Part shown: piece by piece, positions 2,255-62,901 of the stretch
Position numbering within the stretch: the first letter of the stretch is position 1
Layout of the letters: every line of letters begins with the position of its first letter
IMG/VR virus record: IMGVR_UViG_3300045988_153285
Coordinates: 1 to 64,000 of that record
Source: a virus
Strand: one strand, 5' to 3'
Length of the DNA: 64,000 bases
The notes under the pieces: model-generated
The model's database searches: none
What the model was told of the DNA's origin: nothing
Seen by the model: the letters and a program-made list of their open reading frames with translations, nothing else
Position numbers and translations under genes: made by a program

Positions 2255-2281
2255 TATATCTCTCCTTTTATTTGTTAATTT

Positions 2282-2713
2282 TTACAACCAATCTTTTAAA
2301 TCTTTATATATTGCATTTTCTACTTCACTACTAGAATCTATTTCTTCCTGAGTCCATTCATACACTGGTCTTTTTCCTGGTTTTCTACTCCAGTTATATT
2401 TTGCCTCCTCAATATATGTATCAAGTCTATCTCCTCTATTATCACCATTTGCCAATGTTTCATTAGTCATTATATATTCAAAGGAATCACCTGTTTCATC
2501 TACTCTACTTTCTAAGTTGCTCTCATCACCAAAACCTTTGTCATCATATCTTCTTTTATAATATGTAGGTGAATATGAATCATACATTTTTTCAACATTA
2601 CGTTTATATACTTTTTTAACTACTTTATCTACACTTGTAAGTATAGAAGTAGTTAATTCTTCTTCCAAATCTGAAAATAGTTCAAATTCATCATCATATA
2701 TTCTTTTTCCCAT
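2282..2713 (-). CDS. hypothetical protein
   Basis: 143-aa ORF, co-oriented in the structural block. Confidence 0.55.
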   Translation of the reverse strand: MGKRIYDDEFELFSDLEEELTTSILTSVDKVVKKVYKRNVEKMYDSYSPTYYKRRYDDKGFGDESNLESRVDETGDSFEYIMTNETLANGDNRGDRLDTYIEEAKYNWSRKPGKRPVYEWTQEEIDSSSEVENAIYKDLKDWL

Positions 2714-2760
2714 ACATACCTCCTGATTTTATGCATAATAAAAGAGTGGTGTGTTCCACT

Positions 2761-3114
2761 CTAAAATAAACTCATAGTTAAAATTCTATAGTAATTATCA
2801 TCTATTTCTATTAAAGAACTCTTTTTATCTTTAAATTTAATCATAATTTTATGTGTAATATTATTTTTAGCAGTAACCGAACCTGCAATAGCTCCTATAC
2901 TCCCAGCAAGTACACCACCAACCAAAGTTCTTTTTATCATGTTTGCTGTATTTTTATTAGTATCAGAACTTACCACTATATAGTCTTCCACAGTTCTTTT
3001 ACTAATAGGAACATTTACACGTCCGTTTTCTATTATCAACATCTTGTTCTGAACATTGCTTATTTTACACCCTAAATAATCGCCATTTACTACTTTGTTT
3101 TGCATAGATAACAT
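2761..3114 (-). CDS. hypothetical membrane protein
   Basis: 117-aa ORF with one Gly/Ala-rich hydrophobic segment (LVGGVLAGSIGAIAGSV). Confidence 0.5.
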   Translation of the reverse strand: MLSMQNKVVNGDYLGCKISNVQNKMLIIENGRVNVPISKRTVEDYIVVSSDTNKNTANMIKRTLVGGVLAGSIGAIAGSVTAKNNITHKIMIKFKDKKSSLIEIDDNYYRILTMSLF

Positions 3115-3168
3115 ATTCTCCCCTTCATATGATATTGTGTATATTATACCATATTTGAAGAGTTTATG

Positions 3169-4676
3169 TTAATTATTTTCTACATACTTAAATGTAAAAC
3201 CTTTATGGGTTCTTTGTTTGTTTTTTATTGTTGCAGATATAGAACTATGATTTAGTTGGGTTTTAAATAGTTTTAAACTCACTCTCTCCACTTCAGTTAA
3301 AGAGTTAAACACTCCTAATGAAATTCCATATTTAAAAACTTCTACCCTTCTACCTAACGATGATTTTATTTTTTCACCACTTCTTCTTCTTTCTTCTTCT
3401 TTATTATATACACATAAATTTAAATCATGTCCTTTTTTTAGGTATCGTAATATTGTACTTCGACTTAGTCCGAACAATTTTATTAAATCCTCTGTAGTCT
3501 CTGTTTCTCCTCTGTTATTCCAATAATCCCATATCTCTTTTGCTTTATTATTTTTTATAGCATATAAATCAGCCTGTATCCAATTAATATTACTTAAATC
3601 AAATATATCACTCAATTTACTATTTAATATACTATTTTTAATATATTCTAATTCACTCTTACAACAATCAATTCTAATGGTTTCTACACCATGAAGTTTA
3701 TGTTGTTCATCTTTCCATCTGTCTATTTCAATACACTCTTCTAAGGTTTTCTTTGATTTTCCATGAACAACTCCACCTTTATGTCCTAACCCACCATCAG
3801 CTTCGATAACTAAATTTAAACTAGGTATATAAAAATCACTTCTTTTTTGTGACCTTCTACCATATTCTTCTCTTTTTAGATAATTTGGAGAATATTCTAT
3901 TTGGAATTTTACATTTAACTGAGTTAATATATTGTGTATTATTTTTGACGGATAAGAGAATCCATCTCCACAGTTACATCCAATCGATTTTCTTCTTACC
4001 ACATCTACAATACTACATTTTTTATAGTCCCACAGTCTCTGCATAAAAAATTTCCTTTTCTTTGAATCCCATGAGTATTGGTTTTAGCAAACTCTTCGTC
4101 TAATCCAAAATCATCCACTAGCCATTTATGAGTATCCCATGTAGTATTTATTCCTAGGACAGCGGTTTTATTGGCGCAACACGAACAACCAACACCTCTT
4201 AAAAGATTATTTTCTGGAATCCAACCTTCAGTCCAACTACAAACATTACATGTGTATTTGTACCATTTTTCATTTTTAAAATAAATTCTTCCTTGCTTAT
4301 CTGGTTTCTGTTTCTGTTTTCTATACTCTTTATCTACAATAATTATATTACGATTTTTATCTTTTATATTTTCTCCAATTTTTATCTTGAAATCTTTTGT
4401 TACACTTCCTATTATTTTACCTATATTACCTTTTGTAAATGTATATGTTAATGTTTTAAATATTTCTCCGTTATATCTTAAAAATAAAATGTCATCATGT
4501 TCTTTTCGAATAAATTCAAACTCATTATAACCGTATTTAATATGAGTTGTTTTAAAAATAAAACCTTGCCTTATTTCATTCCAACTAATAATTACCTTAT
4601 TTTTAGATAAATTCTTCTTAGGCAATTCATCATAATTTAATATCTCAAACTTCTTATCCATATTCAATTCTCCCAT
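3169..4676 (-). pseudogene. homing-endonuclease-like gene split by a frameshift (zinc ribbons + PD-(D/E)xK-like core + HTH + NUMOD-like tail)
   Basis: ORFs 4005-4676 and 3169-4044 overlap. The first ends inside a CxxC...CxxC ribbon (FLCRDCGTIK) and the second continues it (KKCSIVDVVRRKSIGCNCG). One extra A in the A6 run (T6 at 4018-4023 on plus) would fuse them. The core reads DFYIP..VIEADGGLGH and the tail reads GFTFKY. Confidence 0.55.
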
Positions 4677-4689
4677 CTATTTATGTATG

Positions 4690-4998
4690 TTAAATCACAT
4701 CTAAAAATATTCTTTCACCATTCTTAAATTTACACATAACCCTATTCCCATACAGGTATGCTTCCTTAAACATCTCTTCTTTATCATATAATTCTTCAAC
4801 TAACTTATTAGTCTGACATCCTTCTAAATACTCAAAGTTTATTTCCTCAACATTTCCATTCTCAATATCATCTAACTTTGTATTCCTTATGACAACCAAA
4901 TCTCTTCCCTCTAGCGTGTCCACTCCTACAGCTACACAAAGAACATCTAAAAAATCAATTTTCACCTTATTATATTTTCTCATTGCTAACCACCTCAT
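4690..4998 (-). CDS. hypothetical protein
   Basis: 102-aa ORF, co-oriented. Confidence 0.5.
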   Translation of the reverse strand: MRWLAMRKYNKVKIDFLDVLCVAVGVDTLEGRDLVVIRNTKLDDIENGNVEEINFEYLEGCQTNKLVEELYDKEEMFKEAYLYGNRVMCKFKNGERIFLDVI

Positions 4999-5129
4999 AA
5001 ATTATTTTGTTTCACTTTATGTATTCATTGTACAATATAGTTTTTATATTGTCAACACTATAATTATTATTTTTTATACACTTTATTTTTTATTTTGCAT
5101 ATATTATAATTAATAAGGAGGTGATATTT

Positions 5130-5339
5130 TTGATAAATATAAAACTTTTAGATATAATTAAAAAAGAAGAAAGATCTTTAAATTGGGTAGCAACTAAAAC
5201 TGGAATATCATATAGTACGTTGCATAAATTAAGTAATAATGATACAAAAAGCATTAGTTTCGAGGTATTAGAGAAACTTTGTAAATTGTTTAATGTAGAT
5301 GTTTGTGACATGATAGAAATTAAAAAAGATGAAAAATAA
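5130..5339 (+). CDS. XRE/Cro-type HTH transcriptional regulator (moron on opposite strand)
   Basis: HTH signature reads RSLNWVATKTGISYSTLHKLSNN. RBS AAGGAGG at 5115-5121 with a TTG start at 5130. The ORF-track start at 5121 overlaps the RBS. Confidence 0.7.
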   Translation: MINIKLLDIIKKEERSLNWVATKTGISYSTLHKLSNNDTKSISFEVLEKLCKLFNVDVCDMIEIKKDEK

Positions 5340-5354
5340 ACCAGAAAATACGAT

Positions 5355-7477: not shown

Positions 7478-8545
7478 TTACTTTAATATATTTCTTGATA
7501 AAGGTGTCATATAACATTCACCTGTTTCAATGTTGTTTATATGTATATTTGCTTTTATTAATATCTTATAATTTATATCATCAATATTTAAGCTGTCTAC
7601 TATAGCACCATCTTTTATAAATGCAATACTTGAAGTGAGCTGTTTACCTTGTATCGAGATATCAATAATAGTAGACATTCTAGCTTTTATTACTGGTTTG
7701 CTACCAACTACTTCTTGGTAGAATACTATATGCCCTGTACAACTTTGAACAATTAACTGTGATGAAGAACATCCGCTAACATGAAAGTCATAAGCCGATC
7801 TTACTAATTCACTTGCTACAACTTCAATTGGATTAGTTTCAAATCCTATAGTAGTAGAACCACTTATCTCTATTGGTTTTAATTTTGTATTCCTCACAAG
7901 CTGGTAGTTAACAGTTTCTTCAACTCCATCTATTCTGTTTTGTATAGATTTTTCAAATTCAGTAACAATATTATCTACCTCATTTGTTTTAACTATTACC
8001 TTGTTATCCAAATCTTTTATGGAATTATCAATTAAAGTTTCACCCTGTTCTAATCTATTATTTATATTTGAAATTCTAGTATTAAAATCTTCTAGTTTTA
8101 ACTCAGTTTCTTCTATTATTTTATTTAATTTTATTAATGTATCTATTTGTTCTGCAGCATTTATCATTTCATCTGATATTAAAGTTGAATTTGTTACATA
8201 TAAGAAACTTTGAGTTGTTATATTTTGATCTATATCTCTTATTATTAACTGTCCGATATTTACACCTAATGAATTTATACAACTATCTTTACACACGATA
8301 GTTACTACATTTTCAAAAATAGATATTCCACCTTCTTCAAATTTGTGAATTATAGGGGTATTATTTTCTTGATTAGCCACAACTAAATCAATTTGACAAT
8401 TAGTTAAATCTTTAAGTTGACCATCTTCTATCACTGATATTTTAAGAGTTATATCATCTCCATAATTAAATACTAAATTGCTTTTTAATAATTTGGTTGC
8501 CTTTGTATCTAAAGAAAATGAATAGTGTTTCGATATATCTTGCAT
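7478..8545 (-). CDS. baseplate upper protein (BppU-like) candidate
   Basis: The N-terminal Ig-like segment resembles BppU_N, followed by a long coiled coil. It lies in the tail module. Confidence 0.4.
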   Translation of the reverse strand: MQDISKHYSFSLDTKATKLLKSNLVFNYGDDITLKISVIEDGQLKDLTNCQIDLVVANQENNTPIIHKFEEGGISIFENVVTIVCKDSCINSLGVNIGQLIIRDIDQNITTQSFLYVTNSTLISDEMINAAEQIDTLIKLNKIIEETELKLEDFNTRISNINNRLEQGETLIDNSIKDLDNKVIVKTNEVDNIVTEFEKSIQNRIDGVEETVNYQLVRNTKLKPIEISGSTTIGFETNPIEVVASELVRSAYDFHVSGCSSSQLIVQSCTGHIVFYQEVVGSKPVIKARMSTIIDISIQGKQLTSSIAFIKDGAIVDSLNIDDINYKILIKANIHINNIETGECYMTPLSRNILK

Positions 8546-9429: not shown

Positions 9430-9471
9430 TCAATTTCCTCCTTTATTATTTTAATTTTTATTTAACAATCC

Positions 9472-10338
9472 CTAATTATCTGCTTTCTTAAACACGCTAT
9501 CATAAGGATTATTATTTACGTTTAATTTTGATACAATATTAGGAATATCTAAATCTTCACCATTCTTTTTAGTCATACCACTAGCTTTAAAACAGACCAT
9601 GTCTTCCCTATTTAATTGTTTCATTAGGCTATAGAAGTCTGCCATTAATCTGTAATATGTAAAATCTGAAATGTTATCACATCTTACATTAGTAGATACA
9701 AAAGCTAAAATTGCCTCTATATCCATATCACCTTTTCCAGAATTCATTTTTGCATCAATATATTTTTGTGCTGTTTTAGTAGGTGCAACTAATGGTTCAA
9801 ATAATAGATTTTGTTCCATGACAATTTTTCTAAATTCATAAAAATTATAAGAATCAATACATGCTATCAATTCATCATTTTCATCATAAATATCAAAACA
9901 CTGAATCTTATCATTGTATATAACTTTTCTTTTTATAACCATTGTCATCATTTCTATAATTTCGTTTTCAAAATGTTGAAGGCTTAAATTTTTATATACC
10001 TTCTCATTTAAAATCATATTTTTTATATCTTCGCTGCTGCTAATTAAATCCTTTTTTTCTTTATATGTTAATTTATTTATTTCCTTTATTTTTTTTACTA
10101 TTTCACATGAAGTTCTATCAGTATCAATAAAAGATTTCAGATAATCAAATAAATTGTCAAACTCTAATAAACTAATTCCTTCTTGTCTTCTCTTATTGTT
10201 TAATTGGGGTATATCTAAGATTAAGTATTTTGTTGCTAAATCTCTGAACCTTTCATACTCCATTATTTTTATTGGATATAAATCTAAATTATTTTTCATT
10301 TGAATAGGTTTCATGAGATAATTTCTTAAATCGCTCAT
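9472..10338 (-). CDS. hypothetical structural-module protein
   Basis: 288-aa ORF whose start overlaps the stop of the upstream ORF. Confidence 0.55.
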   Translation of the reverse strand: MSDLRNYLMKPIQMKNNLDLYPIKIMEYERFRDLATKYLILDIPQLNNKRRQEGISLLEFDNLFDYLKSFIDTDRTSCEIVKKIKEINKLTYKEKKDLISSSEDIKNMILNEKVYKNLSLQHFENEIIEMMTMVIKRKVIYNDKIQCFDIYDENDELIACIDSYNFYEFRKIVMEQNLLFEPLVAPTKTAQKYIDAKMNSGKGDMDIEAILAFVSTNVRCDNISDFTYYRLMADFYSLMKQLNREDMVCFKASGMTKKNGEDLDIPNIVSKLNVNNNPYDSVFKKADN

Positions 10339-14582: not shown

Positions 14583-14633
14583 ACTTATTTCCTCCTAAAT
14601 TATATTAATTTTTATTTTGGGTTCTTATCCCAA

Positions 14634-21985: not shown

Positions 21986-21997
21986 CTCTCCACTTTG

Positions 21998-45339: not shown

Positions 45340-45341
45340 TT

Positions 45342-45372: not shown

Positions 45373-45394
45373 TAATATAAATTAACAAAATATA

Positions 45395-45940: not shown

Positions 45941-46005
45941 TAAAAGAGTTTGTTAGTATCTCATCAAAAACTAATTATATAAATTAACAAAATAGAGGTG
46001 GAAAA

Positions 46006-46742: not shown

Positions 46743-46793
46743 ATGAATTGTTTTATTTATATATAAAAATTAATAAAAATATGAGGTAGAATT

Positions 46794-47075: not shown

Positions 47076-47312
47076 ATGAAACGAATAGGTAAATTAACAA
47101 AATATAGAGTAATATGCAATACGCTTGATGTATTAGTTAGAAATAATATAGATAATAGATTTAATATTATACAAGAAAAATTCAATAGGAGAGAATCTGA
47201 AACTATTCAGGAGCTTTTGAGTGTTATAGATGAGTTGTTATGTTCTACAGAAGATTATGATGTTAAACAGTGTTTAATAGCATATAGAGACAGATTGAAG
47301 GTAATAATATAA
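47076..47312 (+). CDS. hypothetical protein
   Basis: 78-aa ORF with an RBS. Confidence 0.45.
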   Translation: MKRIGKLTKYRVICNTLDVLVRNNIDNRFNIIQEKFNRRESETIQELLSVIDELLCSTEDYDVKQCLIAYRDRLKVII

Positions 47313-47574: not shown

Positions 47575-47605
47575 AAAATAATTTAATAAAAATTAACGAA
47601 ATGTG

Positions 47606-47635
47606 TTGACAACGATAAGAAGAATATGGTAATAT
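47606..47635 (+). promoter_or_regulatory. promoter TTGACA-18-TAATAT (TGG-extended)
   Basis: Junction-motif variant at 47590-47601. Confidence 0.55.
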
Positions 47636-49124: not shown

Positions 49125-49199
49125 TTGGAAGAGTGGGCATCTTAATTGGTGTCCACTTAAAATTGTATAGATTAATATAATAAAGGAGAATGAGAAAAT

Positions 49200-49976: not shown

Positions 49977-50042
49977 TACATATAAATAGTTTTAGGTGGC
50001 TAATCTATAAAACCACCTTCAAATATAAATTAACAAAACTCA

Positions 50043-50071
50043 TTGACTGAATTTGAAAAGTATGGTAATAT
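50043..50071 (+). promoter_or_regulatory. promoter TTGACT-17-TAATAT
   Basis: Junction motif at 50027-50038. Confidence 0.55.
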
Positions 50072-50109
50072 ATAAATATAGAAATTAAGAAAAATGAGAG
50101 GTCAAAAAA

Positions 50110-51054
50110 ATGAGTATTATAATTGATAGATTTGAAAGAGAATTAATAAGATCCGAAGCTTCTGTTGATACAATAGCAGCATATAAAAGTGATTTGAAAA
50201 AATTTCATGAATATATAAGAGAAAATGTTTTTTACAGCGATAGCAGTTTCGATGAATCTCTTTGTGCTATTACCTATGAGGTTTTAGAAGATTTTATTTA
50301 TTGGCTTGAAGATAGAGAATATTCAAGAGCAACAATTAACAGAATGGTCGCATCACTAAAAGCATTTTATAAATACTATTCTAAGCATAGCGGATTTAAT
50401 CCTGCTATTGGACTTAAAGGATATAAGAATGTGAATAGTAGACGTAGAACTGTATTATCAAAAGAACAAGTAATTAAAATAATAAACCAAACACAGATAA
50501 AAAGATATGGTGAACCTTATATGTTATTTAATGCACAAAGAAATAGATTTTTAATAGCTTTACTTGCAACAACTGGACTGAGAATAGGAGAAGCACTTAA
50601 TATTAAGTTCGGAAATATAGAACACTACGATGGATATAAAATGGTTAATATCGACATACATAAAGGAAAAACTAAACTTAACAAAAGAGTTCCTATTTGT
50701 GAAAAAATATTGCCATACTATGATTTATATATAGAAGAATATAAGAAAAAATTTAAGATAAGTGATGAAAAATATTTAATTGTTGCTGGAAGATCAGGAG
50801 GACAATTGTGTTCAAAATCTAGTAATGTGATGATAAAAAAATATTGTAAAGAATTAGAGATAGAAGATGTGACAAACCATTGTTTTAGACATTACGCTAA
50901 TACATCACTGGAAGAACTTGAAACACCAGATTCAATAAGAAAAAAAATATTAGGGTGGAGTTGCAATGGTGATATGGGGAATAGTATATATTCGCATGAT
51001 ACAGAAAAAAAAGATAAGATAATGGCGAAGTATTGCAATAAAATATTAGAGTAG
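50110..51054 (+). CDS. tyrosine recombinase (XerC/D-like; integrase or dimer resolvase)
   Basis: TGLRIGEAL (Arg), HCFRHYA (HxxR) and GNSIYSH (Tyr). Confidence 0.8.
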   Translation: MSIIIDRFERELIRSEASVDTIAAYKSDLKKFHEYIRENVFYSDSSFDESLCAITYEVLEDFIYWLEDREYSRATINRMVASLKAFYKYYSKHSGFNPAIGLKGYKNVNSRRRTVLSKEQVIKIINQTQIKRYGEPYMLFNAQRNRFLIALLATTGLRIGEALNIKFGNIEHYDGYKMVNIDIHKGKTKLNKRVPICEKILPYYDLYIEEYKKKFKISDEKYLIVAGRSGGQLCSKSSNVMIKKYCKELEIEDVTNHCFRHYANTSLEELETPDSIRKKILGWSCNGDMGNSIYSHDTEKKDKIMAKYCNKILE

Positions 51055-51061: not shown

Positions 51062-51367
51062 CTACTCTTCTAATAAAAACATGTGAGAACAACCTTTATT
51101 AATATGATTTTTACGGCAAGTCTTTCGTAACTCCTTCGTGGGCATAATAACACAATTATTACAATTGTATTGAATTATTTCACTAGGACAGGTTTTTAAG
51201 TTTTTACAAACTTCAATAAATCTGTCACGTTCATTAGATCCACGATATCTGAAATTATTTGTTTCTAATCTACTTATGTAAGTTTGAGATACTTTTGATT
51301 TAATAGCTAGTTCATCTTGTGTAAGTTTATTTTTCGTCCTATGTTCTTTTAAATTTAATTTTATCAT
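51062..51367 (-). CDS. XRE-family HTH regulator with Cys-rich C-terminus
   Basis: HTH reads LTQDELAIKSKVSQTYISRLE. The likely start is the ATG at 51367. The ORF-track N-extension is hydrophobic junk. Confidence 0.65.
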   Translation of the reverse strand: MIKLNLKEHRTKNKLTQDELAIKSKVSQTYISRLETNNFRYRGSNERDRFIEVCKNLKTCPSEIIQYNCNNCVIMPTKELRKTCRKNHINKGCSHMFLLEE

Positions 51368-51608
51368 TCTTATTCCTTTCTTAATATTTTTATTATATTT
51401 AATAATATTAAAAAATGAAAGAAAAACAAAGCAATACAAATACAAAAAATGAAGAAATATGGAAGAAATAAACGACAAATATTACTATACGGAATAAAAA
51501 TGTGAGAAAAATGTTATATAATGTTATTGTAGACAAATGGTTGCCTCATTTGATATAATAGCAATAAGAAAAGAGAGAACATGTGTTCTTTAGAAAGGGG
51601 AAATTAGG

Positions 51609-51821
51609 ATGGGAGAATTAAGTTTATTAGACTTAAAGGTATTATTAATAGAAAAGGAGGTATTCGATATTGAGAGAAATGGAGAAAAAATGTTTGATGT
51701 TGGCTCAGATGAATTATGGGAAGAAATACATAAAGAAAAAATTATAAAAGCCGAGTTTTTCGGAGATGAAAGTATAGTATACATAAAGTTACAAAGCAAT
51801 GAATTAATATTATTGTTGTAG
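51609..51821 (+). CDS. hypothetical protein
   Basis: 70-aa ORF. Confidence 0.4.
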   Translation: MGELSLLDLKVLLIEKEVFDIERNGEKMFDVGSDELWEEIHKEKIIKAEFFGDESIVYIKLQSNELILLL

Positions 51822-51978
51822 AATAAGCACAGTTAAGTGCTAACATGTAAGTAAAATTAACGAAATATAAACATAAATCACTCCTTTTAGGGTATAATAC
51901 ATATATAAAATAATAAAAAAGATTGATTAAACTGTTGTTTTTATATATAATTATATTTATAGAAGGAGTGTTTTTATC

Positions 51979-53319
51979 ATGGAAAGTTTAGAAAAATTAA
52001 AAGAGAGAATATTAGAATCTGTAGAAGATAATATTAACAATAAAAAATTATTAAAAGAGTTGAGAGAGGAATTTATAAAGAAAAAATTACCTTCAGCCAT
52101 ACCAAACCAATTGTTTAGTGAGTCTATAGATGAAGATCACTTAGATAAAAATGTATTGATTGCTATAACAAAAGTATTTAAGAATGAATTAGACTCTGAA
52201 AAATTTAAACTATCTAATTACTTTAGTGAAGGTGAAATATTTAGCTACAACAATGAGATAGAAGTTAAAGAAAAAATAGATTATGTATTGTTTAAAGGAA
52301 TCAGACAGATAGATGGCAAGAACTTTTTAGGTGTTATTGATGGTAAGCAAGCAGTTGAAATGAGAAAAAATTCACTATATTCCTATAATAAGTTATTTCA
52401 ACGTGCGCCTAAGGTGGTCAGAACATCTTCTGGAAGAACTATAAAGAAAATTGATGCGAATAAAGAAAATATATTAGATATGGAAAAAGAGTTTTCAGAA
52501 GAAAAAATGACACCAACATCTATTCATTTTGCTATATTAGTTAATAATACGGCAGGAATAAGCGAAAACTTTAAATTTAAAAAAATGTATGAAAATATAG
52601 GTGATATGTGGATTAAGCCGAACTTTGATTTTGAATCTGAAACTTATTTACCATTAATGTGTGTTGATGGGTGGCATAGATTAACAGCTATGTGCAATGC
52701 AGTTGAAAAAGCTGAAGCAGAAGGAAAAACAATAAAGGCTGAATTAGGATGTTTTGTTCATATTTTTGATAATGAAGCAGCTATTAGACACTTTATAGTT
52801 AGTACATTTAAACGCTGTACGACTAATCTAGATTATTTAAATGCAATTACTCCTAATGATGACAATATATTTATAGATGAATTTATAAAAGAATGCAAAT
52901 GGTTAAATGGACATACAGCATTAACTAAGCAAGAAATGAAATTAGAAAATAATTATACTGAAAAAAGAATATTAATAGATTCATTTAAGAAAACTAATAT
53001 AGAGATGAATGATGATCTAAAGAACACAATAAGTCGAGAAAAAGTGGCAAAAGTAATCGATGAAACATTAGATTATGTATTAAAAGAATTATATGATAAC
53101 AATTTAGAAAAAATGATTAATACTATTTATTTGAATAGAAATATATTTAAAATGTATATAAAGTTTGCAGCAGAAGTTAGAGATAAAAAATATGGAATGG
53201 ATATTTATAACCTGATTCAGTATATAGAAAATAATTGCGAAAAAATTACAAACACATTTAATGAAAAGTATATAGCAGATAGTAGTATAGATTTAATTCT
53301 GAGCGAGGTGATTAAATAA
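51979..53319 (+). CDS. DGQHR/DndB-like (ParB/Srx-fold) domain protein
   Basis: CVDGWHRLTAM with upstream FQRAPKV resembles the DndB-type QR...DGQHR arrangement. Confidence 0.45.
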   Translation: MESLEKLKERILESVEDNINNKKLLKELREEFIKKKLPSAIPNQLFSESIDEDHLDKNVLIAITKVFKNELDSEKFKLSNYFSEGEIFSYNNEIEVKEKIDYVLFKGIRQIDGKNFLGVIDGKQAVEMRKNSLYSYNKLFQRAPKVVRTSSGRTIKKIDANKENILDMEKEFSEEKMTPTSIHFAILVNNTAGISENFKFKKMYENIGDMWIKPNFDFESETYLPLMCVDGWHRLTAMCNAVEKAEAEGKTIKAELGCFVHIFDNEAAIRHFIVSTFKRCTTNLDYLNAITPNDDNIFIDEFIKECKWLNGHTALTKQEMKLENNYTEKRILIDSFKKTNIEMNDDLKNTISREKVAKVIDETLDYVLKELYDNNLEKMINTIYLNRNIFKMYIKFAAEVRDKKYGMDIYNLIQYIENNCEKITNTFNEKYIADSSIDLILSEVIK

Positions 53320-54461
53320 TGAAGACTTTTGAGGAATTAATAAAGAGCGAAAGAAATAAATTGGAAAATAAAAATTTAAAATTTGATGAGTACGAGAACA
53401 ATAAGATAAACTGGTTAAACGATGATGAGAATAACGGATATATAGCAGAAAAAACAAAGATAACTTATTATAGATTGTTAGATGTGCATGTGCATAGTTC
53501 GGAAATAGCTAATAACAAAGATTTAAGAAAATTTACAAGTGTAGAAATAGAAAACCTAGTTAAAGGAGCAATAACTAATAGTAGTACAACTAAACGTGCT
53601 ATATTTGCAGCTATAAATAATTATATGATATATAACGTTGAAAGAGGATTTATAAGCTACAATCCATGTGACTCAATACCAACAACTGATTTATTTGAAG
53701 TAAATAATAAAGCATTAAAAGAACAATACATGCCGTTAGATGAGTTCTATGCATATGTAGATGAATTATCTGCTGATAATGTTGAAAAAATGGTATATGT
53801 ACTAATTAGATACGGTGTACCAGTAAGTGATGTACCTAATGTCAAATGGGAAGATTTGAATGAAGAAGAAATGGTATTAACAACTATTGTTAAGAAAAAA
53901 GCAGTGTCATTACCTATAGATGAAGATTTTATAAGAAAAGCAAGGTTGTGTAGGGCATGTTCAGAGTATGAAGATGGTGGCTATATGATAAAAACAGTAG
54001 ATGGAAGACTTTCTTCTGTAAGTAGAATATATGGAATAATTGATAGGGTTAGTAAAGCTAGCGAAGTTGCAAGACCAGATATGGGAATGTTATTTAAAAA
54101 TAGAAGATATGATCTCGCATTAGAAATTTATGAAGATGAAGGACAAATAGAATCAAACGATCTAAAAGAAATATTAGATATATTAGGTTTATCAAGTGGA
54201 AATTCTAGTTTAACTACATTTAGAAAAGAATTAGAAAATATCTTTGGTTTAGAAGTTAAAACAAAAAACAAAAGAGCTATTGATGTTATAGATATTAATA
54301 CAGGTGAAATAATAAAGACTTATGAATCTATTAGAAATGTGGTAAAAGATAGCAAAGAAACTTTCGGATTCTATATAGATAAGAGTGTTGTTGGGAAAAC
54401 ATGCAAAGGTGAAAGAGAAGGCATGAGAGGATTAACATTTAGATATTCAGAGCAGGGGTAA
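53319..54461 (+). CDS. catalytically degenerate tyrosine-recombinase-like protein with NUMOD-like C-terminal DNA-binding tail
   Basis: SAM-like core-binding region (TKRAIFAAINNYMIYNVERGFISYNPC). The box I Arg is replaced (IRYGVPVSDV). I could not recognise HxxR or the Tyr. The tail reads GLTFRY. The start overlaps the upstream stop (TAATG). Confidence 0.4.
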   Translation: MKTFEELIKSERNKLENKNLKFDEYENNKINWLNDDENNGYIAEKTKITYYRLLDVHVHSSEIANNKDLRKFTSVEIENLVKGAITNSSTTKRAIFAAINNYMIYNVERGFISYNPCDSIPTTDLFEVNNKALKEQYMPLDEFYAYVDELSADNVEKMVYVLIRYGVPVSDVPNVKWEDLNEEEMVLTTIVKKKAVSLPIDEDFIRKARLCRACSEYEDGGYMIKTVDGRLSSVSRIYGIIDRVSKASEVARPDMGMLFKNRRYDLALEIYEDEGQIESNDLKEILDILGLSSGNSSLTTFRKELENIFGLEVKTKNKRAIDVIDINTGEIIKTYESIRNVVKDSKETFGFYIDKSVVGKTCKGEREGMRGLTFRYSEQG

Positions 54462-54606
54462 AACCTGTTCTTTTATTATATAAATATAAATTAATAAAAT
54501 TTGAGAGAAAAGTGTTTACTTTTATTTCAAACTATGATATTATAATGACATAAGCTAAATATAAATAAATTTGAATTCTATTAGAAAATAAAGGAGAATT
54601 GTAGCA

Positions 54607-56238: not shown

Positions 56239-56268
56239 CTATTTTATAATATAAATTAACAAAAATGA

Positions 56269-56298
56269 TTGACAACAATTAGAAAGTTATGGTAATAT
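56269..56298 (+). promoter_or_regulatory. promoter TTGACA-18-TAATAT
   Basis: Junction motif at 56253-56264. Confidence 0.55.
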
Positions 56299-56332: not shown

Positions 56333-56920
56333 ATGAAAAATAAATTATTTGTTTTGTTAAGTGAGTCATCTGGTGGCAAAGATACATTATTAAATATGAT
56401 AGTAAAAAATGAATTTTTAAAACCTGTTATTTCTACAACAACAAGAAGAATGAGAAGTAATGAAGAACAAGAGCGTGAATATCATTTTATAACTAAAGAA
56501 GAATTTATGTTGATGGAAGCAAAAGATGAATTCCTAGAGACTACGAGTTATCTAATTCCTTCAGAGGGAATAGTCAAATACGGATTAGCAAAGAAAGATG
56601 TTGTTTTGAGTAAAAGCAGCTACGGAGTAATATTGAATCCAATAGGTCTCCAACAAGTAGAAGAACAATTAGGAAAAGAGAATGTTGTTAGTATTTATAT
56701 ACATAGAAATGATAAAGATAGATTTATAAGTTATCTAAATAGAGAAGAAAAAAGGTTTGATTTAATATTGGATGATGCGTACGAAAGATATAAGAGAGAT
56801 TTAAAGGACTTCGCAGGAATAGAAACAAAAGTGGATTATGTAATTAATAATGATGGTTATTCAGAAGATATGTTATTACAATTCTTAGAGATATTAAATG
56901 CAGAAAGTTATAAAAATTAA
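56333..56920 (+). CDS. guanylate-kinase-like nucleotide kinase
   Basis: SESSGGKDT (P-loop-like) and ISTTTRRMRSNEEQEREYHFITKEEF match the GMP-kinase pattern. Confidence 0.65.
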   Translation: MKNKLFVLLSESSGGKDTLLNMIVKNEFLKPVISTTTRRMRSNEEQEREYHFITKEEFMLMEAKDEFLETTSYLIPSEGIVKYGLAKKDVVLSKSSYGVILNPIGLQQVEEQLGKENVVSIYIHRNDKDRFISYLNREEKRFDLILDDAYERYKRDLKDFAGIETKVDYVINNDGYSEDMLLQFLEILNAESYKN

Positions 56921-56941
56921 AATAATAAAGGAGAAAATGAT

Positions 56942-58347: not shown

Positions 58348-58392
58348 AAGAAATATTTTAAAAGAATCTAAAATTAACAAAGGAGAGATAGT

Positions 58393-59161
58393 ATGCAAAT
58401 AAATTTGATTAAAGGTGATTGTTTAGAAAAGATGAAAGATATATCTGATAAGAGTATAGATATGATTTTATGCGATTTACCATATGGGACAACTAAAAAT
58501 AAATGGGACTCAATCATTCCTTTAGATAAGCTGTGGGAACAATATAATAGAGTTGTTAAAGATAATGGAGCGATAATATTGTTTGCACAAACTCCATTTG
58601 ATAAAGTTTTAGGATATAGCAATTTAAAAATGTTAAAATATGAATGGATATGGGAAAAGACTTCGGCCACTGGTTATTTAAACGCCAAAAAGATGCCGAT
58701 GAAAGCCCATGAGAACATATTGGTATTTTATAAAAAATTACCTACATATAATCCACAAAAGACTACTGGACACAAAAGAAAAGTGAGTAAAGCAGAACAT
58801 AAAATTAATTGTGTTAAAACAACTAATTATGGAGTTCATGATTTGACTACATATGATAGCACAGAAAGATATCCAAGAAGTGTACAAGTTTTTAAAACTG
58901 ATAAACAAAAAGAGGCTTTACACCCCACTCAAAAAACCAGTAGAGTTATTAGAGTATCTAATTAAGACTTATACCAACAAAAATGAAACTGTACTGGATA
59001 ACACAATGGGTTCAGGATCTACAGGCGTAGCTTGTGTAAATACAAAAAGAAACTTTATAGGCATTGAATTAGAGGACGATTATTTTGATATAGCAAAAAA
59101 CAGAATTGATACATATATAGAAGATAATAAAATAGAAAATATTGAATTAAATATAAATTAA
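58393..59161 (+). pseudogene. beta-class N6A/N4C DNA methyltransferase split at an A6 run
   Basis: Motif IV (CDLPYG) is in ORF 58393-58965 and motif I (DNTMGSGSTG) is in ORF 58853-59161. HPTQK|PVELLEYL is restored if the A-run at 58931-58936 were A5. Confidence 0.75.
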
Positions 59162-59220
59162 TAAAATAATAAAATAAGTGATTTATTAAAAATAAATTAA
59201 AATAAAAAGGAGATAGACGG

Positions 59221-60165
59221 ATGAAATATTTTGAATTATTTGCAGGGACAGGTATAGGAGGACTAGCATTAGATAGAAATGGATTTAAAAATGTAGGATA
59301 TTCCGAATATGATACGTATGCCATTAAGAATTATGAAGCTAATTTTCCAGGAAGAGTTAACTATGGAGATATAACAAAAATTAATGAAAAAGAATTACCT
59401 AATTTTGATCTATTAATAGGTGGCTCACCATGTCAAGATATAAGTATAATGCGAAAAACTTGGACGGAAGGTAATACAGAAGGGTTGCAGGGGAATGAAA
59501 GTAAATTATTCTTTGATTATGCGAGAATATTAAACTATAAATTACCAAAATGGTTTATATTTGAGAATGTTCAGAATTTAACTACATGTAATAACGGGGA
59601 AGACTGGGATATAGTCAAAACCGCTTTAGAGAGAAATTATTTTATAAAGTATAAAATATTAGATACTAAAAATTATAATATACCTCAAACTAGAAGAAGA
59701 ATATACATACTTGGACAAAGAAAAGATTTGGGAGAATTTAATTATGAATTTCCTAAACCATTGAAATTAAACAAAACAGTATTTGATCTATTAGAAAGAA
59801 ATGTTGATGATAAATATTATTTAAGTGATAAAATGTATGACTATGTTATGAAAGAAGGTACTGGGAACTTTAAGCAAAAGCCTGAGACTGATCTTGAAAT
59901 TGCTAGACCTCTTACAGCTACTATGCATAAAATGCACAGAGCTGGAACGGATAATTATTATCATACTAACTATAAGCCAAATAATAAAACAAATTTAAGA
60001 AAATTAACACCTAGGGAATGTGCTAGACTACAAGGTTTGGATGATACATATAAAATAGTAGTTAGTGACACAAGGGCTTATAAATTAATGGGAAATGCTA
60101 TGAGTCTAAATGTTATTGAAGCAATAGTTAAAGAATTATTGGAATACATAAATAAATTAAAATAA
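59221..60165 (+). CDS. DNA cytosine-5 methyltransferase
   Basis: Motifs FAGTGIGG, SPCQDIS, ENV, QTRRR and GNAM. Confidence 0.9.
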   Translation: MKYFELFAGTGIGGLALDRNGFKNVGYSEYDTYAIKNYEANFPGRVNYGDITKINEKELPNFDLLIGGSPCQDISIMRKTWTEGNTEGLQGNESKLFFDYARILNYKLPKWFIFENVQNLTTCNNGEDWDIVKTALERNYFIKYKILDTKNYNIPQTRRRIYILGQRKDLGEFNYEFPKPLKLNKTVFDLLERNVDDKYYLSDKMYDYVMKEGTGNFKQKPETDLEIARPLTATMHKMHRAGTDNYYHTNYKPNNKTNLRKLTPRECARLQGLDDTYKIVVSDTRAYKLMGNAMSLNVIEAIVKELLEYINKLK

Positions 60166-60247
60166 AAAATATTAGAGAGAGCTAACAAAATAAATTGATA
60201 AAATTAATCTTTTATAGAAAATAATAAACTAAAAGGAGGAAATAAGA

Positions 60248-60970
60248 ATGGTTTATATGGGAAGTAAGAATAGATTAGCAAAATGTTTAGTGCCAATAAT
60301 ACAAAATTATATAACAGAAGATACAAGAGGATATTTAGAACCATTTGTAGGTGGTGCAAATATGATTGATAAGATACAATGCAACAATAAAATAGGTTGC
60401 GATATACATAAACCATTAATAGCATTATTGAACAAAGCAAAAGATGATAGTGAATCTTTGCCAACGAATATAACAAAAGAAGAATATGAGGACGTTAAAA
60501 ATAATAAGGAGAGTTACGAAGATTGGTATGTAGGATTAGTCGGTTTCTGTTCTAGTTTTGGCGCTAAGTATTTTGGTGGATATGCAAAAGCTAATGATAA
60601 GAGAAACAGACAATTAGAGATGATAAATAATTTAAAGAAACAATCACCTAATTTAAAAAATATAGAGTTTAAATGTTGTGATTTTCTTGATTTGCCAAAA
60701 GAAGATATAAAAGGATATGTTATTTATTGCGATCCACCATATAAAGGGACAACCAAGTATAAGACAGAAGAATTTCCATATGAAGAATTTTATGAATGGT
60801 GCAAAGAAATGTCAATACATAATACAGTTTTAATTAGTGAATATAATATGCCCGATGATTTTGAATGCATATGGGAGAAAGATCTTAAAACTTCTTTGGG
60901 TAGTGGTGTTAATAAAGAGAGTGATAGAAATAGAACTGAAAGATTATATACATATAAAATAACTAAATAA
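60248..60970 (+). CDS. Dam-family (alpha-class) N6-adenine DNA methyltransferase
   Basis: GSKNRL, EPFVGGANM and CDPPY. Confidence 0.8.
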   Translation: MVYMGSKNRLAKCLVPIIQNYITEDTRGYLEPFVGGANMIDKIQCNNKIGCDIHKPLIALLNKAKDDSESLPTNITKEEYEDVKNNKESYEDWYVGLVGFCSSFGAKYFGGYAKANDKRNRQLEMINNLKKQSPNLKNIEFKCCDFLDLPKEDIKGYVIYCDPPYKGTTKYKTEEFPYEEFYEWCKEMSIHNTVLISEYNMPDDFECIWEKDLKTSLGSGVNKESDRNRTERLYTYKITK

Positions 60971-61015
60971 AATCAACCTTTTATAAAAAATAAATTAAAA
61001 ATGGAGGAATTATAA

Positions 61016-61588
61016 TGAGTGCAACTAACCGAGGAGCAGAAAGAAAGGCGTATGATTTTTATGCTACACCAATAGATGTTGTTTTAAACTTTTTGGAAAA
61101 ACAAAATATATCAAAATTAAATCAAGGTGGGGGGGGTAATTCTTGAACCATCTGCAGGGAATGGAAATATAATAAAAGCATTGAATACATATTATAAAGA
61201 TAGAAAAATAGAGGCTTGCGAAATTAGGCAGGAAGAAGAATTGGGATTAAAAGAGATTTCAGATGAAGTAATTATAGGGAATTTCTTAGAATTAGACATT
61301 GATAAGAAATATGATGTTATAATAGGTAATCCACCTTATAGTTTGGCAAGGGAGTTTGTAGAAAAATCTTTAAACAGCTTAAAAGATGATGGCGTATTGA
61401 TATTTCTTTTAAGAACAGCTTTCTTGGAAAGTAAATCTAGGTATGAATTTTGGCAAAAGAATCCTTTGAGTGGATTGTATACATTAAGTAAGAGACCAAG
61501 TTTCACAGGGAAAGGTACTGATGCAACATCTTATAGTTGGTTTGTTTGGGATAAAGGTTCAGATAAACAAACAATTAAAGTTATATAA
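61016..61588 (+). pseudogene. gamma-class N6-adenine DNA methyltransferase interrupted at a G8 tract (out of frame as sequenced)
   Basis: The ATG at 61016 gives MSATNRGAERKAYDFYATPIDVV...NQGGGGNS-stop. The frame with LEPSAGNGN and GNPPYS resumes at the G-run 61128-61135. G7 would give one ORF. Confidence 0.65.
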
Positions 61589-61600
61589 GGAGAATTTTAA

Positions 61601-61774
61601 ATGTATAAATGTAATAATTGTGGAAATGAGAAATATTTCGAAGAAACTAATATTATTAAAATTTTTGTATTACAAGATGAAGATGGTAATATAAACACTT
61701 CAAGTGATAAATTTTTATATAACCAAAATGTGATTTGTTCAAAATGTAAAAGAGTAATAGAGAATAAATCTTAA
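61601..61774 (+). CDS. small zinc-ribbon protein (57 aa)
   Basis: Contains CNNC...CSKC. RBS AAGGAG. Confidence 0.45.
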   Translation: MYKCNNCGNEKYFEETNIIKIFVLQDEDGNINTSSDKFLYNQNVICSKCKRVIENKS

Positions 61775-61803
61775 AATAATTATATATAAATTAATAAAAT
61801 AAA

Positions 61804-61832
61804 TTGACAACTCATTTCCGAAATGTTATCAT
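61804..61832 (+). promoter_or_regulatory. promoter TTGACA-17-TATCAT (TG-extended)
   Basis: Junction motif at 61788-61799. Confidence 0.55.
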
Positions 61833-61893
61833 GAATAGTAGTAATTAACAGATAAGGAGTGAGTTGTAAAAAAAATTAAAGAGGTAGAACAGT

Positions 61894-62535
61894 ATGGAAT
61901 TAGGGAGATATAAACATAAAATAACTGAGAAAGAATTTAAAAGTGCAACTAATGTGTGCAAAAGGTTGGCTAGAGAATATTATGAAAAGAATGATAGATA
62001 TACATACGAAGAATATTTAAGTACGGCATATTATGGGTTATCAAGGGCTATTAAATATTATGATAGCAGGAAAGCATCGTTTATTAGATTAATTTATATA
62101 TGCTGTGAACAAGATTTAGCAATGATGATTAATACAATAGATAAAAAATATAATCAAAATAAAAGAGAATTTGAACCTAAAATAGTTGCAGATTATAGTT
62201 TGAATGAGGTTATTAAAACAGAAAAGAGCTTAAACAACACCGACAATACATTAGAAGATCTCATTGGAGATAAAAGAGTAGATTATACATATATAGAGGT
62301 AAAAGATTATATACATACAATATTCAATAGTTTTTATGAAAATATAAATCCTAAAATGAAAAGATTTAAAGTTAATAAAGATAGAGATATAAGATTAATA
62401 GAGTTGATTGTAAAAGGCTACACAGTAATGGAGGCTAGTAATATTATAGGTATTTCTAATCAGTTGGCAAATAGTATAATAAAGAAATTTAGAAATTATG
62501 CCATAGAAAATAACTTGAAATATAATATAAATTAA
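61894..62535 (+). CDS. sigma-70-family (ECF/phage-type) sigma factor
   Basis: Region 2-like segment reads YLSTAYYGLSRAIKYYDSRKASFIRLIYICCEQDL. Region 4 HTH reads GYTVMEASNIIGISNQLANSIIKKF. Confidence 0.6.
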   Translation: MELGRYKHKITEKEFKSATNVCKRLAREYYEKNDRYTYEEYLSTAYYGLSRAIKYYDSRKASFIRLIYICCEQDLAMMINTIDKKYNQNKREFEPKIVADYSLNEVIKTEKSLNNTDNTLEDLIGDKRVDYTYIEVKDYIHTIFNSFYENINPKMKRFKVNKDRDIRLIELIVKGYTVMEASNIIGISNQLANSIIKKFRNYAIENNLKYNIN

Positions 62536-62577
62536 CAAAATAAAAGATAGGTTTTATTGAAAGCAAGGAGGTATAAA

Positions 62578-62793
62578 ATGAAGCAGCAGGAATATTATGT
62601 GACGTTAAAGTTAAAAATTGAATCTGATCCAATCCAGGAAGAAGACTTATTAACTAAAGAAATAATCGATGATAGATTTAAACAAAGAATGAGTTGTATA
62701 TTTGATGAGGAGACTATTGAAGTTAAGGAATTTAAAAGCAAGTTAAAAGTTAAGGAGGTGGAAAATAAAAATGAGCGAGAAACAGATTTATAG
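62578..62793 (+). CDS. hypothetical protein
   Basis: RBS AAGGAGG followed by the ATG at 62578. Confidence 0.45.
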   Translation: MKQQEYYVTLKLKIESDPIQEEDLLTKEIIDDRFKQRMSCIFDEETIEVKEFKSKLKVKEVENKNERETDL

Positions 62794-62860
62794 ACATTAC
62801 CAACAAGGGTTTATTTCAAATGAAGAATTAAAGAGTTGGATTAAAAAAATAAATACATAA
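62771..62860 (+). CDS. possible 29-aa overlapping mini-ORF
   Basis: RBS GGAGGTGG sits 9 nt before the ATG. Very short. Confidence 0.25.
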   Translation: MSEKQIYRHYQQGFISNEELKSWIKKINT

Positions 62861-62901
62861 TAGTTGAATTATAAAAATTAACAAAATAAAGGAGAAGGTA
62901 A

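Follow-up and report, generated by a model that had tools for sequence, protein, structure and literature searches.

The stretch of DNA analyzed here raises the question of what reads a short, strand-specific repeat that recurs at its gene junctions. The stretch, called the window throughout, comprises positions 1–64,000 of the IMG/VR virus record IMGVR_UViG_3300045988_153285, and all coordinates are window positions. An earlier note, made from the sequence alone, had described the repeat as a motif of 12–16 nt at about 30 junctions. We confirm that the motif is real and find it to be asymmetric, ∼22 nt long, rich in A-tracts, co-oriented with the genes and mostly intergenic. The reading that we favor, and regard as fairly probable, is that its copies would form an SPBRE-type operator array for the element's own MrpR/SroF-like repressor, with stoperator-like sites at junctions. 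Since the window encodes TubR and TubZ together with a tailed-phage late module, and since its close relatives are clostridial (viral and metagenomic contigs of 96–142 kb and a 118-kb Clostridium cuniculi contig, the closest isolate record), the element is taken to be a clostridial phage-plasmid. In sequence terms, it is a distant relative of the Bacillus phage SPbeta residing in Clostridium.

The 12-mer core of the motif, AAATTAAYAAAA, occurs exactly 27 times in the 64-kb window compared with 1.04 times (maximum 4) in dinucleotide-preserving shuffles, and 73 times with up to one mismatch compared with 20.8 expected, which bears out an enrichment that had earlier been estimated from composition. 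The coordinates listed in the earlier note are all genuine: 18 plus-strand and 4 minus-strand starts are exact cores, and 38745, 42435, 47590, 51854, 58371, 2269/2270 and 21993/21994 match with one mismatch, while five exact copies had been missed (41151, 41290, 41858, 43730 and 47091). In an alignment of the exact copies, conservation extends into the flanks (WWATAW on the 5′ side and TARA on the 3′ side), such that the previously described core is part of a longer unit of ∼22 nt with the consensus TTATATAAATTAAYAAAATARA. The same alignment contains TATAAATT in 16 of its 27 members and no conserved −35-like element 17 nt from the motif. The unit is non-palindromic and composed of A-tracts (AAATT, AAAA, AAA), and its natural variants include the C/T position, AAATTAATRAA and AAATTAAAATAAT.

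We built a 23-column position weight matrix (PWM) on the core and its flanks, which finds 47 sites at 12 bits or more in the window compared with ∼1.6 expected. At 10 bits or more, all 51 of 51 matches are co-oriented with the local gene block (minus from 1 to 30.3 kb, plus from 38.4 to 64 kb) and none is antisense. About 85% of sites are intergenic or overlap a gene end, in a window that is only ∼16.5% non-coding according to a gene model based on open reading frames (ORFs), and the strand specificity and junction placement claimed for the motif therefore stand. Since the window has 27% G+C and its sense-strand intergenic DNA is A-rich, we also applied a harsher null, in which gene-oriented intergenic DNA was modeled with first- to third-order Markov chains trained on that same DNA. 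Against this null the PWM finds 36 sense and 0 antisense sites where at most 0.9 are expected (0.7 at third order), and the exact core occurs 23 times in intergenic sense DNA compared with 0.37 at third order. A motif-blind seed search returned the motif as the top intergenic 14-mer.

The copies fall into sharply defined contexts. At 10 promoter-class sites a TTGAC(A/T) or TTGATT hexamer starts exactly 4 nt past the core, and thus abuts the 22-nt unit, compared with ∼0.9 sites expected from a matched background (rate 1.8%); this spacing is invariant in 10/10 cases, and the motif spans about −57 to −36. A scan for promoters and terminators covering 44 kb of the window found four perfect 12/12 TTGACA-17-TATAAT promoters, and all four are abutted by the motif (38470, 43448 and 45395 on the plus strand, 29610 on the minus strand). 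Some promoter-class copies lie between an intrinsic terminator and a promoter (e.g. terminator 45340–45363 then motif 45373, terminator 54449–54471 then motif 54482, and the copy at 29610) and are unlikely to be transcribed, which favors a function at the DNA level. At 17 junction-class sites the Shine–Dalgarno sequence (SD) begins 1–5 nt past the core, in gaps of 27–50 nt between one gene's stop codon and the next gene; the stop codon is often inside the motif's 5′ flank, and a clear promoter lies just upstream in only two cases (39492 and 50076). In about 10 cases the copy and the preceding gene's stop codon overlap. The three contexts described earlier are therefore all real, with spacings sharper than had been given. 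Two promoters, one serving an integrase-like gene and the other a non-coding unit near 42.47 kb, have a motif copy on either side. Good promoters without the motif also exist, at 4984–5089 and in the tubR and rep regions.

The distribution of sites at 12 bits or more follows the functional modules of the element. Density is highest (∼1.4 sites/kb) from 38.3 to 64 kb, which holds early and accessory genes (methylases, MazF-like, ANT/Bro and the repression module), intermediate (∼0.6 sites/kb) in the polymerase operon region from 22.2 to 30.4 kb, and lowest (∼0.27 sites/kb, as weak variants or intragenic matches only) in the late structural block from 1 to 22 kb, which encodes the tape measure, tail fibre, virion proteins and TerL. 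The weaker variants reported before structural genes at 7413, 9441 and 13021 do exist, as does one at 14595. No site lies between 30.4 and 38.3 kb, where TubR, TubZ and the putative replication region are located. An early-rich distribution that spares tubRZ fits a lysogeny repressor. Two other roles were considered and dropped: a MazF (ACA) cleavage site, because the T variant lacks ACA and promoter-class copies lie outside transcripts, and a tubC or iteron role, because the tubRZ and replication regions have no copy.

The candidate reader lies in a module that the earlier note had overlooked. The gene at 53319–54461 (plus strand) encodes a 380-aa MrpR/SroF (YopR)-like protein with a recombinase fold, the proposed motif binder, which was recognized through Pfam, PHROG and structural comparison of an AlphaFold (AF2) model. 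Upstream on the same strand are genes for a 446-aa YopQ (SroE)-like protein (51979–53319; BLASTP against YopQ, E = 9e-8; phrog_5732 shared with YopQ) and a 314-aa YopP (SroD)-like tyrosine-integrase-family protein (50110–51054; Pfam Phage_integrase; phrog_1 and phrog_216 shared with YopP), and the resulting yopP–yopQ–yopR-like order is that of SPbeta and is kept in seven relatives. The 380-aa protein scores 27.7 bits against Pfam MrpR_N_CB (PF22822; cut-off 27) and belongs to phrog_5830, as does SPbeta YopR; PF22822 is present in 43/43 homologs, and the group at ∼40% identity also carries PF22823 (MrpR_C_cat). The AF2 model has a predicted local distance difference test score (pLDDT) of 89.9, and its top six Foldseek hits in the PDB are YopR/MrpR (8bj6, 8a0a, 8bpz; E = 1e-10) and phi3T SroF, ahead of XerA and lambda Int, with the DNA-bound SroF structure 9rd5 giving the best TM-score. 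The relation is seen by fold comparison, as a profile of the MrpR-like family run against PDB sequences missed MrpR. A tblastn search with the protein against phages and plasmids gave no match, and its relatives came solely from metagenomic data, IMG/VR and a single C. cuniculi contig.

Catalytic positions were assigned from alignment, secondary structure and column conservation rather than by superposition. In an alignment of 13 sequences, the catalytic helices (residues 266–320) hold no conserved Tyr and no His/Trp, while R164, K192, K260 and R262 are kept; without these residues, the protein cannot be an active recombinase. When hhalign was used to map catalytic residues from the integrase that the element encodes, the MrpR-like family aligned to it with a probability of only 0.7%. 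The protein also has a C-terminal extension of ∼60 aa (54276–54461, residues ∼320–380; beta-beta-alpha-alpha-beta) that is absent from MrpR/SroF. This extension, which might make for a longer DNA footprint, bears a faint likeness to the DNA-binding tail of the homing endonuclease I-HmuI (profile E = 0.45; Foldseek E = 0.013).

The favored reading draws on what is known of this repressor family. MrpR (also YopR or SroF) is the master repressor of SPbeta; its ten peaks in chromatin affinity purification sequencing (ChAP-seq) all lie at SPBRE, where binding and ∼5-fold repression were confirmed by electrophoretic mobility shift assay and lacZ fusions (PMC10516654). The phi3T SroF monomer nearly encircles a 26-bp asymmetric box, reading 24 bp of it, and recognizes two consecutive A-tracts, partly via groove shape (bioRxiv 10.1101/2025.11.27.690993). 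Our census of the SPbeta genome found ∼11 copies of ATAGACAAATACAAAWAATATGTATAWA in 134 kb, all co-oriented with the downstream gene, located 6 nt upstream of the aimR −35 and between the −10 and SD at yonX, yopM and yopV (1–5 nt from the SD). The locus studied here shares with these systems the family and fold of the repressor, the yopP–Q–R order, a YonO-family polymerase in the same element, and a long, asymmetric, A-tract-rich site in multiple dispersed copies that are co-oriented with the downstream gene and placed just 5′ of a −35 or in the interval from the −10 to the SD. An SOS box and small acidic ORF beside the module may be a further parallel. It differs in being a Clostridium TubZ/TubR phage-plasmid instead of an integrated Bacillus prophage, and in that the MrpR homolog, besides its extra C-terminal domain, lacks the tyrosine that MrpR retains. 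The site sequence is also unrelated, although SPBRE and the phi3T box likewise differ from each other.

By analogy with the SPbeta and phi3T relatives, we infer that the catalytically dead 380-aa protein would clamp as a monomer around the asymmetric A-tract box, with a candidate target that can be written as TTATATAAATTAACAAAATAGA or TTATATAAATTAACAAAATAGATTGACA in a 26–30-bp context. While the element is maintained as a plasmid (the lysogenic state), ∼50 co-oriented sites, spread over the early/accessory genes and the polymerase operon, would be bound by the repressor. At −35-abutting sites, a footprint of ∼24–26 bp, as judged from its relatives, would exclude sigma region 4 or the C-terminal domain of the alpha subunit (alpha-CTD) and so block RNA polymerase binding, while sites past the −10 and the junction sites, 17 or more, would act as stoperator-like roadblocks to initiating or read-through polymerase. 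Partition and replication genes, which must stay on, would escape repression because they are free of sites. That the four perfect consensus promoters are all motif-abutted suggests a need for repression rather than activation.

A possible release switch is located beside the repressor operon. The only LexA-type SOS box in the window, GAACATGTGTTC (GAAC-N4-GTTC), lies at 51577–51588 on the plus strand, 3′ of a TG-extended promoter (51530–51559), and its position is conserved in the relatives L009, L010, L012, L013 and L014, in each of which it is again the sole such box in the locus. The ORF at 51609–51821 (plus strand), immediately upstream of the YopQ-like and MrpR-like genes, encodes a conserved acidic protein of 70 aa with 17 D+E compared with 8 K+R. 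In phi3T/SPbeta, the LexA-controlled small protein Sar inactivates SroF through acidic residues that mimic DNA (bioRxiv 10.1101/2025.11.27.690993). The acidic ORF is accordingly a candidate SOS-controlled antirepressor whose induction would release the repressor as Sar does, and the parallel would support, by analogy, the presence of the whole SroF–Sar switch, with the difference that phi3T sar is downstream of sroF and the SOS-controlled ORF here is upstream of the repressor operon.

Relatives of the element provide a graded comparison, as homologs of the 380-aa protein range from 94% to 38% identity in conserved synteny. Where the MrpR-like protein is 73–100% identical, there are 7.3–9.5 PWM matches/10 kb with AAATTAAYAAAA as the dominant form; at 50–65% identity there are 5.4–5.7 matches/10 kb with the forms TATAAATTAATRAA (65%) and TAAATTAAAATAAT (50%); and at 39–40% identity there are 0.9–2.6 matches/10 kb with the looser AAAATAAAWTAAA. 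All matches in the relatives are on the sense strand, each form occurs in the same two contexts, and the 65% relative keeps the window's offset to TTGACA. Among intergenic sense sites, the base after WAWAAATTAA is C in 36/86 sites of the close group compared with 0/29 of the distant group (Fisher p = 3.7e-6), which means that the sites have shifted in concert. In 54 alignments of orthologous sites, the core is 98–100% identical and the flanks 92–94%. Two clostridial phage-plasmids that have a YonO-like polymerase and no detectable MrpR-like gene show 1.4 and 2.1 matches/10 kb at the same G+C. The gradients of density and sequence fit co-evolution of repressor and site; being confounded with overall divergence, they are not proof of the identity of the factor that reads the site.

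Several points weigh against a repressor array. The link between protein and motif is drawn by analogy and from homology, the sequence of the motif resembles neither SPBRE nor the phi3T box, and any element-specific factor would give the same gradient among relatives. With 47 sites in 64 kb (regionally more than one per kb) compared with ∼11 in 134 kb, the array also exceeds that of SPbeta four- to fivefold in site number and density, and many of its sites are operon-internal junctions without a recognizable promoter, a placement for which there is no report from SPbeta. Apart from genome compaction, nothing obvious at the DNA level would account for the tight abutment to the SD. The AAATTAA core is missing from the site at 51901, in front of the repressor operon, and the motif holds TATAAATT, resembling a T4-late-type −10, in an element that probably encodes a sigma factor.

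The promoter-less junction sites invite comparison with the stoperators of Cluster A mycobacteriophages (L5 gp71-type), where a monomeric repressor binds more than 20 asymmetric sites, some at promoters and others in the short gaps between genes, and where a flipped site loses function (PMC9283540). The array described here likewise exceeds 20 asymmetric sites, found both at promoters and within operons in short gaps, with an orientation that follows transcription. In contrast, the L5 repressor has a helix-turn-helix (HTH) and a Stoperator domain where the candidate here has a recombinase fold, and the elongation block demonstrated for L5 is proposed here. The Cluster A site is a G/C-containing 13-mer, and the unit here is 22 nt and A/T-rich. 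Since the repressor folds are unrelated, the likeness is one of mechanism and not of family membership. In Cluster K mycobacteriophages, start-associated sequences (SAS) and their extended form (ESAS) are short, asymmetric, conserved sequences immediately 5′ of many starts and co-oriented with the genes; SAS include the ribosome-binding site and have a proposed role in translation initiation. Unlike SAS/ESAS, one third of the classified copies here precede promoters; some of these are bounded by a terminator and a −35, where they are unlikely to be in mRNA.

The kind of system would thus be known, an MrpR/SroF repressor with its SPBRE/SroF box, and what would be new is the host and lifestyle, the unrelated site sequence, the number of sites, the promoter-less junctions and the extra C-terminal domain. 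A bolder version, which we entertain as a tentative possibility, is that a recombinase-fold clamp repressor independently evolved stoperator-style silencing, in which ∼50 or more co-oriented monomers at nearly every early junction would stop RNA polymerase from initiating at perfect-consensus promoters as well as from reading through, and the repeats would double as cassette crossover points. Should elongation indeed be blocked at junction sites, the stoperator strategy of mycobacteriophages would have been invented a second time, in structurally unrelated form. Descriptions of MrpR/SroF and Sar are recent and confined to Bacillus arbitrium prophages of the SPbeta family, and the present locus indicates the same repression module and a YonO-type polymerase in TubZ-partitioned extrachromosomal phage-plasmids of Clostridium, apparently without arbitrium genes, none of which was recognized among the proteins scanned. 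We found no paper linking MrpR/YopR/SroF to Clostridium or to phage-plasmids in a literature search of incomplete coverage. One protein and one 22-nt site with natural variants and graded homologs would make a cheap system for studying how the specificity of monomeric recombinase-fold repressors evolves, and the motif can serve as a good guide when early transcription units and immunity groups are annotated across this phage-plasmid family.

Among other explanations, the one that survives best, though we consider it unlikely, is the leading idea of the earlier note: an element-specific promoter, read either by the YonO-family polymerase (T7-like, ∼22 nt) or by host core enzyme with the element's sigma-like factor (−10-only, like the T4 late TATAAATA), with starts near the motif's 3′ end and very short leaders. 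Of the two proteins that had been invoked, the polymerase is encoded and the sigma factor probably is. The single-chain RNA polymerase homolog of 975 aa (23947–26874, minus strand) matches phrog_8308, the SPbeta YonO family, over its full length (E = 1.8e-94) and keeps the DxDxD motif in alignment with YonO. The 213-aa protein at 61894–62535 (plus strand), with a C-terminal HTH, is probably a small sigma-70-family factor because its 60%-identical homolog P0048 carries Pfam Sigma70_r2; the promoter of its gene is itself motif-abutted, and its stop codon lies within another copy. A continuous, asymmetric motif that is co-oriented with the downstream gene, often follows terminators and in 16/27 exact copies contains TATAAATT, which we take to resemble the T4 late −10, would suit such a promoter. 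The promoter recognized by SPbeta YonO is still to be defined, and that enzyme uses a single late transcription start site (PMC5467207). A promoter for the phage enzyme would thus be expected before YonO-dependent late genes, and the late block here is the poorest in motifs and has the weakest copies (0.27/kb compared with 1.4/kb in the early region). The motif lacks a conserved −35-like element at 17 nt and is too short for a bipartite sigma-70-type promoter, and SPBRE in the same contexts is a proven repressor site. Independent tandem promoters would also leave unexplained the invariant 4-nt spacing to a host-type −35, a rigidity that points to a bound factor interacting with host RNA polymerase. 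The low match density in the phage-plasmids with a YonO-like polymerase and no MrpR (1.4–2.1/10 kb) argues in the same direction, although this is a weak test with polymerases only ∼32% identical.

A different element-encoded factor, or an activator site, is likewise improbable. The element encodes several DNA-binding proteins, among them the YopQ-like protein (ParB/DndB-like), whose counterpart YopQ/SroE shares an operon with the repressor in SPbeta-like phages, an HTH protein at 40105–40995, and an Xre/HTH_3-type regulator at 51062–51478 (minus strand), which is divergent from the SOS-controlled ORF, falls in PHROG transcriptional repressor families and has conserved synteny; a site centred near −47 is, moreover, a classic activator position. 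Xre/HTH dimers, however, usually bind palindromes, and the motif is strongly asymmetric with no antisense matches. Perfect consensus promoters need no activation, an activator would leave the SD-abutting junction sites unexplained, and in this gene neighborhood a long, asymmetric, multi-copy box is documented for MrpR/SroF alone.

We give little credence to a composite of host signals, in which an A-tract UP element bound by alpha-CTD would precede the −35 and an A/U-rich translational enhancer or leader would precede the SD, with uniformity arising from copying during cassette duplication. The motif does occupy the UP-element position (about −57 to −36) at the 10 promoter-class sites and ends in A-tracts, A-rich sequence before an SD is common, weak variants precede abundant virion protein genes, and the most distant relatives L010 and L014 have the looser AAAATAAAWTAAA in the same two contexts. 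In contrast, UP elements act only at about −40 to −60 and are general at strong promoters, and the motif is neither so confined nor so general, being far more specific, absent from the good promoters at 4984–5089 and in the tubR and rep regions, and absent from 30.4–38.3 kb altogether. At least 12 invariant positions (including the specific TT and C/T) over 27 copies with unrelated flanks exceed what a UP element or S1-type enhancer needs, plasmids of the same genus and G+C have few copies, and a clade-specific C variant is not expected of a host-factor signal. Each half of the composite explains one context only, and, because 17 sites abut an SD without a promoter downstream, a simple UP element is insufficient, a conclusion that the earlier note had also reached.

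A primary role as a recombination boundary, i.e. a microhomology or site-specific target for gene-cassette exchange, is very improbable: three independent rearrangement junctions with 21–34 nt of overlapping homology do fall within motif copies, one of them a clean one-gene indel (28916–29374) flanked by two copies, and the copies are direct repeats at cassette borders, but of 85 internal homology breakpoints 20% lie within 30 nt of a motif compared with 19.8% for an intergenic null, the recombinase-fold protein lacks a nucleophilic tyrosine, and exact −35/SD abutment with core conservation points to a function at the level of expression. The cassette shuffling suggested earlier thus has anecdotal cases without enrichment, and recombination at the repeats is best seen as an expected by-product, with copies serving as occasional crossover points. 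The junction intervals are 28759–29405, 58370–58391, 62527–62560 and 62874–62895 in the window, and L003:14644–14677, L004:7765–7786 and L006:7986–8006 in the relatives.

The individual copies can be followed along the element, beginning with the minus-strand block. In the late block, SD-abutting copies overlap the upstream stop at 2265–2287 (19.2 bits, SD 3 nt past the core) and, with one mismatch, at 21988–22010 (14.8 bits); SD-abutting variants are found at 9441–9463 (AAATTAAAATAAT, 20.0 bits), preceding a virion structural gene, and at the junction 14595–14617 (18.1 bits, SD +3). Two weak motif-like matches are doubtful, at 8124–8146 (15.4 bits, wholly within the coding sequence 7478–8545) and 10058–10080 (14.6 bits, in a coding sequence). 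Further along this strand, a variant at 23103–23125 (16.7 bits) covers a stop codon at the 5′ edge of a 969-nt non-coding gap, and a copy at 23619–23641 (19.9 bits) follows a terminator hairpin (23688–23663) and precedes a small gene (23320–23595). The SD-abutting junction copy at 28468–28490 (24.4 bits) overlaps the upstream stop before a CoiA-like gene, and the one at 29386–29408 (22.1 bits) contains the L006/L007 indel junction of gene 28916–29374. The copy at 29610–29632 (25.4 bits) has a terminator before it and abuts the perfect polymerase-operon promoter (29610–29582, TTGACA-17-TATAAT, 12/12).

The plus-strand copies include three that abut perfect 12/12 promoters: 38448–38470 (20.4 bits; promoter 38470–38498), 43426–43448 (22.3 bits; promoter 43448–43476 of a 610-aa gene) and 45373–45395 (22.9 bits), which lies between its terminator and the promoter 45395–45423. 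Others abut TTGACA-18-TAATAT (TG-extended) before a MazF-like gene (47584–47606, one mismatch, 16.1 bits), the same arrangement before a guanylate-kinase-like gene (56247–56269, 22.5 bits), and TTGACA-17-TATCAT (TG) as the promoter of the sigma-like gene (61782–61804, 23.5 bits), whose stop lies under the copy at 62523–62545 (25.2 bits), with an L003 cassette junction at the 3′ flank. In the repression module, the YopP-like integrase gene has one copy abutting its TTGACT-17-TAATAT promoter (50021–50043, 18.4 bits) and a second, SD-abutting copy 4 nt past the −10 (50076–50098, 18.8 bits); the promoter of the YopQ-like/MrpR-like operon (TTGATT-17-TATAAT) is abutted by the variant AAAATAATAAAA (51901–51923, 18.9 bits), identical in L009 and a possible autoregulation site; and a copy at 54482–54504 (18.1 bits) lies just past the terminator that follows the MrpR-like gene.

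SD-abutting copies on this strand are found at 38739–38761 (one mismatch, 18.8 bits), at 39492–39514 (26.4 bits), located 4 nt past the −10 of TTGACT-16-TATAAT as SPBRE is at yopV/yonX, at the junctions 45975–45997 (the top-scoring copy at 27.2 bits, SD +2) and 46761–46783 (18.6 bits), and at 62869–62891 (26.4 bits, with an L004 cassette junction inside), and SD-abutting variants at 49163–49185 (17.6 bits) before an ANT/Bro antirepressor-family gene, at 56908–56930 (20.4 bits), overlapping the upstream stop, and at 60212–60234 (15.6 bits) before a Dam-like methylase gene. A cluster of three copies (59149, 59157 and 59188, spanning 59149–59210; 20.2, 14.4 and 16.6 bits) precedes a C5 methylase gene, the last abutting the SD. 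Stop codons are covered at 42323–42345 (22.0 bits; gene 41356–42330), by a variant at the C5 methylase gene (60148–60170, 16.2 bits) and by another at the second C5 methylase gene (63946–63968, 19.7 bits). The copy at 39834–39856 (24.8 bits) lies after a terminator and before a small gene (39880–40050), that at 41145–41167 (17.7 bits) is within non-coding 40996–41355, and that at 41284–41306 (19.6 bits) is 49 nt 5′ of a 324-aa gene. Exact cores also occur within coding sequences at 41852–41874 (16.9 bits) and 43724–43746 (20.6 bits), and just within the 5′ end of a small one at 47085–47107 (19.5 bits).

Two regions under several copies merit description. From 42471 to 42970, ∼400 nt of ORF-free DNA with higher G+C is driven by a motif-abutted TTGACA promoter (copy 42449–42471, 23.5 bits, with a one-mismatch copy 20 nt upstream at 42435); a second copy lies just past that promoter (42525–42547, 17.7 bits), and a third (42948–42970, 23.5 bits), then a terminator-like hairpin, closes the stretch upstream of gene 43039. 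This stretch may encode a non-coding RNA under motif control. From 58393 to 63948 there are at least five DNA methyltransferase genes (N6/N4, C5, Dam-like, an Eco57I-like fragment and a second C5), most of them preceded by motif copies, and the cluster looks like an anti-restriction arsenal under motif control.

The partition and replication regions have repeats of their own. A TubR-like winged-helix gene (30733–31029) is followed by a TubZ tubulin/FtsZ-family gene (31033–32094), and within the segment 30326–32094 the 407-nt divergent region upstream of tubRZ, with a MerR-family gene on its other side, holds many short T-rich repeats and is a possible tubC centromere. Iteron-like repeats of the AATACCAC type lie at ∼36.9–37.1 kb, upstream of or within the 5′ part of a 408-aa ORF, and GATTGG/TGTGATTGG repeats lie near the 38.3-kb end of a 1-kb non-coding gap (37323–38326); the motif-free segment 36525–38326 is probably the plasmid replication origin region.

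Among the relatives, the 73% relative has an IS605 OrfB/TnpB-type gene among its early genes (L008:1382–2536), with none at that position in the window. In L017 (C. botulinum pNPD1_1, NZ_CP013295 153032–195185), which is YonO-positive and MrpR-negative, the intergenic 14-mer ATTTAAAATAATTT is over-represented, with 29 matches at up to two mismatches in 12 kb of intergenic DNA, and may be a repeated signal of its own or low-complexity sequence. A near-identity DNA search with 38–58 kb of the window against GenBank phages gave no match. Lastly, between the YonO-like gene and the late genes are two non-coding gaps that are G+C-richer than their surroundings, 22151–23119 (969 nt) and 23596–23946 (351 nt); the corresponding place in SPbeta is where a non-coding RNA and the sole start site of YonO are located. 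An Rfam scan of the whole window gave no match, and the 969-nt gap folds no better than shuffles (z = −0.78 for 22640–23100); parts of the two gaps are 93–95% conserved in L006/L007.

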